NCBI RefSeq assembly: GCF_032062105.1
Contig: NW_026918275.1
Coordinates: 1-64,000 of the forward strand
Source of the DNA: Saccostrea cucullata
Lineage: Eukaryota
Reading direction: 5' to 3'
DNA length: 64,000 bases
The position numbers and the translations under genes were made by a program. This document shows, piece after piece, positions 40,951-47,724 of this stretch (its first letter is position 1; each line of letters begins with the position of its first letter). The notes beneath the pieces are model-generated. The model did no database searches and was not told the origin of the DNA. It saw only the letters and a list, made by a program, of their open reading frames with translations.

Positions 40951-41968
40951 TATATTGTACCCGCTGGGTTTACTGATTTGATGTAATGAGATTAAATAAA
41001 TCCTAACGCAAGGTTTTCCCTTGTTCTTCGTCCATCATGCACTGTGCCATTATAGCATAGGTCATCATTATCCTGTGGCGGAAGTACTTCACACTAAGGC
41101 AACTGTATCCTGTGATTGATGCACATATTGTGCAAAACCGCTGTCGCTACTATCACCTTAATTTGGAGGGAACATTTGATAGAGTATATAAAAACATATT
41201 TTTGGATTTAAAAATATACATTTGATATTTTCATAGTTATTTGTTTATACCTTGCATGCTTTCGAAGGATGAAATAACAGAGGACCTCCAGTTTTATCAA
41301 GACAGCGAAAACGGCCCTTCCACACACCAAAACATCTTTCAACAGAGTTTCTTGCTTTCATATGACGAGCATTATAACGATGCTCTGAGAGAGTATAAGG
41401 CTGTAAATAGGGGGTCATCATCCATGGTCTTAGTGGATATGCTGAATCAACCAAGAGCCACCCCCCGCTAATTTCACTAATATAAAATATTCATGCATCT
41501 ACATGTATTAACATTTTGAAAAAATGAGCTGTTAAGGAACACCCCTCCCCCACATACGATGGTTGTCCCAAAATTACTTAGACAAGCGCCAATAAGAGTA
41601 AGGTGTAAGATGTGAGAAATCACAACGCATGTGGATGGTAGAAAGCGCGCACTTTAATAATGCAACCGGAAACAACGTGCATACACATAACAATATTACA
41701 AAGGTGGAAATAATAATTCCGGACAGTGCCAATGTCTGACGCTACCATTTTTCATTCTTTTCTTTCTTTTTTTTTACTGACAATTTTTGTCTAAAATTTT
41801 TTTTTTCAAAACTGGCAAAAGGATATTAAACTAACTGCATGTAACACTAAACCCAAATATTAAACAACACCTTCACTGGGTAGACTGCCCTCAGGTGTGG
41901 GGATTATTCTGTCCCATTTTCTAAACAAAACACACCACAAATATATGTAGCATAGCATAAAACAAATG

Positions 41969-44900
41969 TCAGTACATCACAAAATCTGAGTATTTCTGAG
42001 GCAGGACGCGCTGCCGTTGTGGTCTGGCCGAGGAAGACGCATTGTCAACTCCGGTGACTTCAGTGTCCTGTTGCTGGTCATGAGCAATGTGTTGGTCACT
42101 CTGAGGTTCTAGTTGGTCATCATTTCTGCTATTGTCAGGTATATCAGGTGGCTCGACATATGACGCTGGAATCGTGGATATTGCTTTTGGAATGAATGGT
42201 AAGGTGGGTGGATTGGAATCAGTAGGTTGACTGATGGATTCATCATCAGATAAGGCGTCAGAGGACACACCTTGTAGCTTTTCAGGGTAATTGACACTTG
42301 GTACCTTGTAACAGTCTGGTGTTTTTACTCGATATGAACTCTGGCGTAGTTGTGAACCTGCAAATCGGCGTATGTTGCACCAAGGATAGTCCATGTTGAC
42401 AATGATATATCTGTCTCGGGATTTGGCTTTGTTAAGGTCGCATCGGAGGTAAACTATATCTCCCACACTCAGCTCAGGTTCTGGTGGTGGTTTTTGGGAT
42501 GGGCATTTAGCTCGTTCACTATATGGGTGGTTCTGTTGACGGAGATCATGTTGAGCTTTGATAAGGTCTTGATCCGCGAGTGGAATCTGAGTATTGGAAA
42601 ACTGATCCCTTTGTAGCCACATCTCTCTGGCTGACAGACCCCTGTTCCTGATACGCGTGTTTAGATTTGGCACTATGTTGTTTGATGGGTCAAACCGTAG
42701 TATTTCCTCCTCTAGTTCTTGGACTGCCCTCTCTGCCACAGGGTTCTTGTTAATGTTCTTAGGGCGACCAAGTTCGATTCTGATACGGTGTCGTCCAAGA
42801 AGTTCGTCGTTTACTAGGGCCTTAAATCCAGGGGCTGAATCTGTTCGTATAACAGCAAATGGGCCATCAAGAGGGTGAACGTCGGCTAACAGTTGAAGTA
42901 TGGCATCACGAAGTTCCTGGTTGCGTTCAGACTCGAGTAATTTGGTAAATGTGTAAGAGGTGATGCTTTCTCGTAGCACAAATACCATTTGCCGTTCACG
43001 TCTAAGAACATCAGCAGCAAAAGAAGTGCCGACTGTTTCTGGAGGATCAGAAGAACTCTGTTGCTGACAAAACTTTGGCATTTTCTGTAGGGAGGCACAT
43101 TGGTGACACGTACTTGTGACCACTTCTACGGCTTTGTCCATGTCTAAGGCATAGAAATATCGACTGACAACACACTTGAGTTGGTGACTAGAGGGATGGT
43201 CAAGTTTAATGTGCAAAGCGGTGAGTAAGCCATTCAGGACCTGTCCTGGGATAAAGATACAATCTCTGCTTGGCGCAAATGGAACGTTCCGCTTTACTAC
43301 CAATAAACCGTCTTTCGAAATTGATGCAACATTGAGGTATCTTTTGACGTCTCTCACGTTCGTAAGTTTCTTTGATGGACGTGTTCCCTGACGTAGATGG
43401 GCCACTGTACGGCGGAGGTCAGAGCACTCAGATTGGATTGAGAGCCATGCTGCCCTGCTCGTAAAGGGCAGATTGGCCATCCCATCAAGAACCTCTTTTG
43501 TAGTTACATGGCGAACAACAGATTCCTCTTGGCGATTGATGAAACTACAGATCTGGCATGAGGTGTTGTTACATTCAGGGGCATTTCGGCTGGCAAAGTC
43601 GGAAGGCAAAATAGCTTGACCGGAAATGTGCCTGATGGATATTTGAAAGCGGCTTGCGGTTGATAGGAATGTGGAGACTCTGGGGCTGGCTGAAAATTCT
43701 CCTCTAAAAAGCTTCTCGTAAGCCTGAACACAAGGTTTGCTGTCGGTTAATACACAAGCTGGAAGCACTGATTGTATTATATATGGACTGTAATGCTTCA
43801 TGGCTGCGGAAATTGATAAGGCTTCAATTTCACATGGTAACCACTGTCGCTGGTTCTTGCGGAGTTTTGCACTAAAAAAGCCTGCCAAGAGGGGTTTGCC
43901 TTTCCTTTCTACATAAAGGGTGGCACCAAGTCCATATTTCTTTAAGGCTCCATCTGTAGCGATCCACAGTTGATCACTCGGGCGTGGAAGGGTTATAGAT
44001 TTATGTGTAGTTAATGCCTCTTGTGCTCTATGGAAGGCTGATAGCAGATCATCTGTCCACACAATTCTGTCCTTGGGATGACGGCCAGCTACTATGTCAT
44101 CGAGTGGTGCGAGGAGCTGTGATGTATCCTGGATAACACGTGATAAGACCTTATAAGCACCAATGAATGAGCGAAGAGACGTTACTGTTTGGGGAGTCGC
44201 GCAAGTAGAGAGCGTGGAAATGCGGTGTTTACTTGCACTAATTGTGCCGAGTTGCCAGACCCAACCAAGAATTGTAGCCTGAGCTGGTGCGATTATTGTC
44301 TTTGATGCGGATAGATTAAGGCTGCTTCTATGCAGGGCCTCAAGGACTCTTTCCCAGTTACGCATGAGATCCTCAGGTGTGTTGCCCCCACAATACAGGT
44401 CATCAGCGATTTTGGCTACAACTCCTTCCTGAACGAGGTGACCAAGAACTCTGCAGGTTAGTTCCTCTAGTGCAGTTTCTGAACCCGGCATTCCCATAGC
44501 GGATCTCACATACACTCGCACTCCACGGAATGGTGTAGAAACGCCACAGTATTTCATTGACTCCCTCGCCAAAGGAATTTGGTAAAATGACTTTGTAAGA
44601 TCTGTTATAACGATGTACTTCCATTGGGCTATTTGTCTTAATGTTGAGTCTATATCCGGCATAAGGGATGGCTGTGGTTTGCTATAACGTCCGACGTCAG
44701 CAAAGGCAGTCAGTAGCCTGAATCCACCATTCGGTTTTTTAATCAGGAAGGATGGATTGACGTACTCTGCAGTAATGCCAATATCTTCAGGGCGTTTAAA
44801 GACGCCAATACTTTCAAGTTCATCAAATTTTTCTTGAAGAGTGTCAAGTTGATGTTTGGAGTACTGAGGGACTCTTCCTTTCCTTTGCGGTGGTTGAACA

Positions 44901-46917: not shown

Positions 46918-46930
46918 ACCGCTGCCACCA
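46918..46930 (-). promoter_or_regulatory. Primer binding site (tRNA-Leu type)
   Basis: TGGTGGCAGCGGT directly follows the 5' LTR and is complementary to the ACCGCUGCCACCA 3' end of eukaryotic tRNA-Leu(AAG). Confidence 0.8.
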
Positions 46931-47724
46931 CGCCAATAAGAGTAAGGTGTAAGATGTGAGAAATCACAACACATGTGGATGGTACAAAGCGCGCACTTTA
47001 ATAATGCAACCGGAAACAACGTGCATACACATAACAATATTACAAAAGTGGAAATAATAATTCCGGACAGTGCCAATGTCTGGCGAAGCGTTGTTTTGTA
47101 GGAACTCTCTGTCATACATTAATAAACTTCGTACATAGATTAAACCAATAATATCTAATAAATTTATGGACAAATATGGAGTAACTACACAACTTTTTCC
47201 ATTTAAAAAGACAAATTTCATTGTCTGGTATAGGAAGGCGGCGCAATACCAAAAAGTTGCAATTAAAATTTTGTATATTATATTTAAAATCCTACGGAAA
47301 AGTAATCACTACCATGTATTTATTGAATGGAAATGAAAATTCATAATATTTTTTTTGCATACAATACTGCATTAATTTCCCTTACATTACTTTACCGTAG
47401 TATTTACTGGGGGGGGGGGGGGGGGGGGGCTGTACTTCAATGAACATTTTCTAAAGTAAAATTAATGTTGGGTAAAAAACTGCCCCCCCCCCCCCCCCCT
47501 TGTTACTACGTGCCTGTATATACATGTTTATACAAAGCACAAGGTAATGCGCTTTCGTCGAATTTATTTTTGTTGGGAATATTACATACCGGATTCAAAC
47601 TTTGTTGAAAGAGAACTGTCAGTCCATATGAAAGAGTCATGACTGCTCCCTGGTCAATTAGCGACGATGTTGGTGAATCTGAGATCGGCGTCGCACACTC
47701 CCTGAACATTTATTGATTGGAAAC

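Follow-up and report, generated by a model that had tools for sequence, protein, structure and literature searches.

Troyka LTR retrotransposons were reportedly described by Kapitonov and Jurka in 2008. According to Kojima (2025; J Gen Virol 106:002143, PMC12440569), these elements have LTRs of the form 5'-CG...CG-3'; among 603 LTRs, 573 carry CGCCA and 522 carry TGGCG, and CGTCA and CACCA are listed among the end variants. The same study showed target-site duplications (TSDs) of 3 bp, which were confirmed at empty sites, as well as LTRs of 100-400 bp, a CX2CX8-10HX4C zinc knuckle in Gag and the lack of both GPF/Y and env. Of the 86 bivalve genomes, 70 proved to contain Troyka elements, and the author proposed a superfamily outside Gypsy, while Repbase classes Troyka under Gypsy (PMC12440569). 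The Kuafuorterviruses of Gong and Han (2024; Virus Evol 10:veae110, PMC11673190) are the same group and include the Repbase Troyka elements. They are 5-6 kb in length, carry 'IADD, VADD, or LADD' in place of the YXDD motif of the reverse transcriptase (RT) and fall outside Gypsy in the published trees; LTR ends, TSD and primer are not discussed in the main text of that paper. A literature search with 'Troyka' and 'Kuafuortervir' brought up no further study of the group, and a meeting report (PMC12859917), in its available text, merely cites it.

The window analyzed here is a stretch of 64,000 nucleotides from the oyster Saccostrea cucullata. Its minus strand contains, at 41,587-47,085, an LTR retrotransposon of 5,499 bp, which is read, with a probability of about 0.97, as a Troyka element (Kuafuortervirus; Kuafuorterviridae) with CG...CG ends and a 3-bp TSD, sitting in the remains of an older transposon and likely unable to move by itself any longer. 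The features of the locus are the following.

46931..47085, minus strand: 5' LTR, 155 bp, CGCCA...TGGCG
46918..46930, minus strand: primer-binding site (PBS) of 13 nt directly adjoining the LTR, complementary to host tRNA-Leu(AAG/TAG) at its 3' end including CCA
46553..46792, minus strand: 5' piece of gag, beginning at the first ATG past the PBS
41969..46537, minus strand: stop-to-stop frame of 1,522 aa with the remaining Gag, protease, RT, RNase H as well as integrase; without env and without GPF/Y
45935..45988, minus strand: Gag zinc knuckle CX2CX8HX4C of the Troyka type, residues 184-201
45617..45760, minus strand: retropepsin with DSG active site; weak match to Asp_protease_2 (E 0.054), DSG/DTG column in the homologues, profile matching Ddi1-type proteases
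44132..44776, minus strand: RT core, with IADD at 44399-44410
43583..44059, minus strand: RNase H, immediately past the RT; D-E-D-D columns conserved
42338..43243, minus strand: integrase with HHCC finger and D1176-D1233-(35)-E1269; C-terminal limit approximate
41742..41770, minus strand: polypurine tract adjoining the 3' LTR, final TGGTAG
41587..41741, minus strand: 3' LTR, 155 bp, CGTCA...TGGCG
41584..41586, plus strand: left copy of the TSD, AAG
47086..47088, plus strand: right copy of the TSD, AAG
40951..41546, no strand assigned: left part of a multicopy host repeat that includes, at 41245-41490, part of a Harbinger-type transposase (DDE_Tnp_4, E 8e-15)
47094..47724, no strand assigned: right part of this host repeat

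The two LTRs are direct repeats identical at 151 of 155 positions (97.4%). The four mismatches comprise three transitions and one transversion and correspond to a K2P distance of 0.026, in keeping with the initial annotation, in which the insertion was regarded as fairly young. LTR homology ends at CGCCA and TGGCG, without TG...CA; the 3' LTR begins with CGTCA and ends with TGGCG, the change in CGTCA being one of the four mismatches. The PBS TGGTGGCAGCGGT follows directly after the 5' LTR with zero spacer, and a purine tract with terminal TGGTAG directly precedes the 3' LTR. The 155-bp LTRs, their CGCCA...TGGCG ends, the PBS abutting the LTR and the motif KIADDL (residues 709-714 of the long frame) had all been recognized in the initial annotation and are confirmed.

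The suspicion of a lineage marked by a particular end signature and by an RT motif other than YxDD was also borne out, but not its novelty. The lineage is already catalogued with the same ends (PMC12440569) and the same RT motif (PMC11673190); publications of 2008, 2024 and 2025 cover Troyka together with its ends, TSD and RT motif. In Dataset S7 of PMC11673190, the RT row of Saccostrea glomerata is identical to residues 588-802 of the long frame in 206 of 211 shared columns (~98%, counted by eye); therefore, the family of this element, or one very close to it, has already been published. Two of the six representatives in Dataset S1 of PMC11673190 (Acropora and Pachyseris; first 400 letters) likewise show the junction TGGCG|TGGTGGCAGCGG. 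LTR finders set to TG...CA and a 4-6 bp TSD would likely miss Troyka elements, and their description is useful as annotation.

The coding region matches Pfam profiles in the order PR-RT-RH-IN, namely a weak aspartyl protease, RVT_1, RT_RNaseH and Integrase_H2C2, the last of them below its cut-off. Only ~230 bp separate the pol stop from the 3' LTR, with neither env nor tether. Among 7,984 scored candidates, 1,239 homologues were obtained, of which the best 120 share 68-81% identity over RT-RNase H; those bearing names are mostly from bivalves, corals and abalone. The RT motif in these best 120 homologues is LADD in 57, IADD in 56 and VADD in 7, i.e., L/I/V-ADD in 120/120. An aliphatic residue ahead of xDD is compatible with a working RT, as TERT rows in the published alignment (PMC11673190) read LADD and FVDD. 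Catalytic columns of RNase H and integrase are conserved, and the D-E spacing is 35 in all 105 homologues having both residues. Among 121 proteins, 97 have a Gag knuckle with a spacer of 8 or 9, 23 give no match and one has another spacing. Past the catalytic Glu of the element's integrase there is no GPF/GPY, and among 121 C-terminal tails (18 of them short) three contain GPF/Y. Three Troyka-type polyproteins (P0053, P0058 and P0095) are filed under names of bacterial MAGs (Candidatus Thiodiazotropha, Deltaproteobacteria), which likely reflects contamination of the bins by the host animal.

The element interrupts the multicopy host repeat. Ten paralogous loci of this repeat were examined for an empty site: in four, the left and right parts of the repeat are joined directly, but these lack 48 bp around the insertion site; the remaining six diverge ahead of it. 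The only other copy of the window locus is likewise occupied by the element. The right part of the host repeat includes an inverted repeat of a G-run and a C-run at 47396-47510, and just beyond the host repeat, at 40702-40917 of the window, lies a degenerate short tandem repeat with a period of ~16-21 bp.

As for its integrity, the window copy has its first ATG past the PBS at 46792, within a separate short frame. Comparison with sister copies and one full-length homologue places three small frame-shifting indels at ~46,650-46,480, which split this gag piece from the long frame. Most Troyka members have a single Gag-Pol frame, and among the best 120 homologues 65 are single proteins of >1,590 aa; frameshifts disrupt it in the window copy. 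The long frame, given at first as 1513 aa, spans 1,522 aa from stop to stop; it is not the whole gene and is no sign of intactness. In the integrase, an in-frame deletion near 42,660 removes nine codons ~20 residues past the catalytic Glu; the nine residues are present in the homologues and in all four sister full-length loci compared. As gag is frameshifted and the integrase carries an in-frame deletion, the window copy is likely dead. The other full-length copies compared have broken frames too.

The breaks might instead be sequencing errors in an intact and active copy. Just one base is gained or lost at two of the three gag breaks, in one case in a homopolymer, contigs rich in indels occur in the assembly (the same-site copy has 154 indel events) and the LTRs retain 97.4% identity, all of which would suit this explanation. 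Nevertheless, it is held to be very improbable, given that the four sister loci all carry the integrase codons missing here and that the same-site copy on contig C15346 lacks offsetting indels both at the integrase deletion and at two of the gag breaks, although this contig may represent the same haplotype assembled twice. Because C15346 shows no such indels, these two gag breaks and the integrase deletion are likely real.

A second alternative holds that the element belongs to an undescribed clade of Gypsy (Metaviridae) whose ends changed independently, and the initial annotation had indeed called it a Gypsy element. The likeness to Ty3/Gypsy lies in the domain order PR-RT-RH-IN and the type of RNase H; the closest solved relatives, i.e., the best PDB matches, are Ty3 RT and Gag-Pol, and Troyka is filed as Gypsy by Repbase. 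Ty3/Gypsy elements differ, however, in their TG...CA ends, their 4-6 bp TSD and their CX2CX4HX4C knuckle (PMC12440569), none of which is found in the window element. Each odd feature of the element fits the published Troyka/Kuafuortervirus group, which refutes the word 'undescribed', and both PMC12440569 and PMC11673190 argue for a position outside Gypsy. Within the same genome, Gypsy-type elements have an aromatic residue in the RT motif (YIDD, FIDD and FLDD) and share 22-26% identity with the element over RT-RNase H. RT identity is bimodal there, mostly 51-100% in the Troyka group versus 25-29% in the remaining matches.

A quick RT tree of 21 xADD, eight Gypsy-type and one BEL rows, containing no named references, puts a very long branch (SH-aLRT 100) between xADD and the Gypsy-type RTs of the same genome. 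It misplaces the BEL row inside the xADD group with a branch length of 10, and the tree is therefore not used to infer a root or a position with respect to Gypsy. An undescribed Gypsy clade has only a slight chance of being correct.

The TSD of the window element is AAG on the plus strand, i.e., CTT on the minus strand. A search with its LTR in the same genome gave 42 matches, 30 of which were obtained as loci, 25 of these spanning most of the LTR; the LTR ends are constant and the flanks variable. In the element's own family, all five distinct sites have exactly 3 bp as their longest duplication: CTT, GTG, ATA and TTA were found in five full-length loci representing four distinct sites, and ATG in one solo LTR. 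The ATA site is present on two contigs, and a sixth full-length locus, on the indel-rich contig C15346, is the window's own site. Sister families of the same genome were represented by 20 loci fetched via RT search. Of these, 13 had an LTR pair and 11 resolved both ends, corresponding to nine distinct sites, all with a TSD of 3 bp; their LTRs start with CGCCA, CACCA or CACAA and end with TGGCG. The alignment of junctions in other copies and the solo LTR thus settled the choice left by the initial annotation in favor of symmetric ends and a 3-bp AAG duplication, and the AAGCG of the right flank is a coincidence of a single site. Asymmetric ends, or ends reaching TG...CA, with a TSD of 4-5 bp (AAGC or AAGCG) were suggested by that right flank and have a negligible chance of being true, as flanks elsewhere vary while CG is kept at both ends and the TSD is exactly 3 bp at all five own-family and all nine sister-family sites.

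In metagenome contigs, an LTR-like repeat pair was seen in 17 of 79 loci, many of them contig wrap-arounds, and three were resolved. Two of these (L121 and L162) have non-matching flanks (TSD 0) and are putatively collapsed assemblies, not counted as TSD support; the third (L118) is a wrap-around artefact.

The genome contains several more Troyka families with ~60-80% RT identity, one of which starts with CACCA/CACAA and not with CGCCA. Three fetched Troyka-family pairs have LTRs that are 99-100% identical. One insertion with identical flanks occurs three times (L105 on C11282, L106 and L107 on C14166, the latter two 39.5 kb apart), representing either segmental duplication or assembly redundancy. 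In two further loci (L046 and L047, on C21932 and C11311), a 3' LTR of the element's own family is interrupted near position 115 by ~450 bp of inserted sequence. Elsewhere in the window, the minus strand at ~48400-53500 holds a decayed BEL/Pao retrotransposon in several frames, with an RT reading YVDD, Peptidase_A17 and integrase, and a repeat family with a spacing of ~160-170 bp occupies 54278-55044.

The PBS corresponds to 13 contiguous bases of the 3' end of host tRNA-Leu plus CCA. A tRNA pattern search found eight places in the genome, and five of the six fetched were identified by ARAGORN as tRNA-Leu(AAG or TAG). Of the 20 own-genome loci, 19 were testable, and 16 of these showed a Leu-type PBS upstream of gag with a pattern that is Leu-biased and blind to other primers; of the 79 metagenome loci, 47 were testable and 39 showed it. 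TGGCG stands directly ahead of this PBS in 15 of the 16 own-genome and 33 of the 39 metagenome loci, and the arrangement thus recurs across hosts. An origin of TGGCG by capture of a former primer site was considered and set aside. The six bases ahead of the 3' LTR differ by family, e.g., TGGTAG, TGGTGA, AGGTTG, AAGTTG and GAACCA. The terms 'PBS', 'primer', 'tRNA' and 'polypurine' are absent from the main texts of PMC12440569 and PMC11673190, whereas Repbase Reports and the supplements of Kojima may give the primer. A zero-spacer tRNA-Leu PBS in most relatives tested would thus be a small addition beyond both main texts, and it predicts a blunt cDNA end.

From these data, a possible replication cycle can be outlined. 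Minus-strand DNA would be primed by host tRNA-Leu(AAG/TAG) at the complementary 13-nt PBS abutting the LTR, and plus-strand DNA probably at the purine tract ahead of the 3' LTR. The RT, with an aliphatic residue and Ala before its two catalytic Asp as in 120/120 homologues, is expected to be functional, to judge from the young insertions. As there is no spacer between LTR and PBS, a blunt or nearly blunt U5 cDNA end is predicted, as in Ty1, and trimming of a dinucleotide would be unneeded. The D-D-35-E integrase would then join CG-3' instead of CA-3' ends over a 3-bp stagger, to judge from the inserted products. The window copy has since gained its gag frameshifts and integrase deletion.

Altered end recognition by the integrase of the Troyka lineage is something we infer, and no biochemical test of it was found in the texts of PMC12440569 and PMC11673190. 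Extended to Troyka as a group, a scheme of tRNA-Leu priming without PBS spacer, blunt cDNA and an integrase joining the unprocessed CG-3' end over a 3-bp stagger is proposed tentatively, at somewhat below even odds. If true, it would provide a natural retroviral-type integrase without the CA rule and without 3' processing. The interest of Troyka lies here, as no biochemistry was found on a D-D-35-E integrase using CG ends and a 3-bp stagger.

Compared with the described systems, the window element resembles Troyka (PMC12440569) in its CG...CG ends, 3-bp TSD, 155-bp LTR, CX2CX8HX4C knuckle, PR-RT-RH-IN order and lack of env and GPF/Y; no difference at the family level was found relative to that description, apart from the broken state of the window copy. 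It resembles the Kuafuorterviruses (PMC11673190) in the IADD motif, the 5-6 kb length and the set of domains. The zero-spacer tRNA-Leu PBS adds a concrete prediction for the cDNA end. Ty1, a Copia element of yeast, differs from Troyka in needing TG...CA, in its 5-bp TSD, in its initiator tRNA-Met primer and in the Copia domain order. It is nevertheless a mechanistic analogue, since its PBS also adjoins the 5' LTR and its cDNA substrate is blunt-ended (PMC2939329), the same end that is predicted for Troyka.
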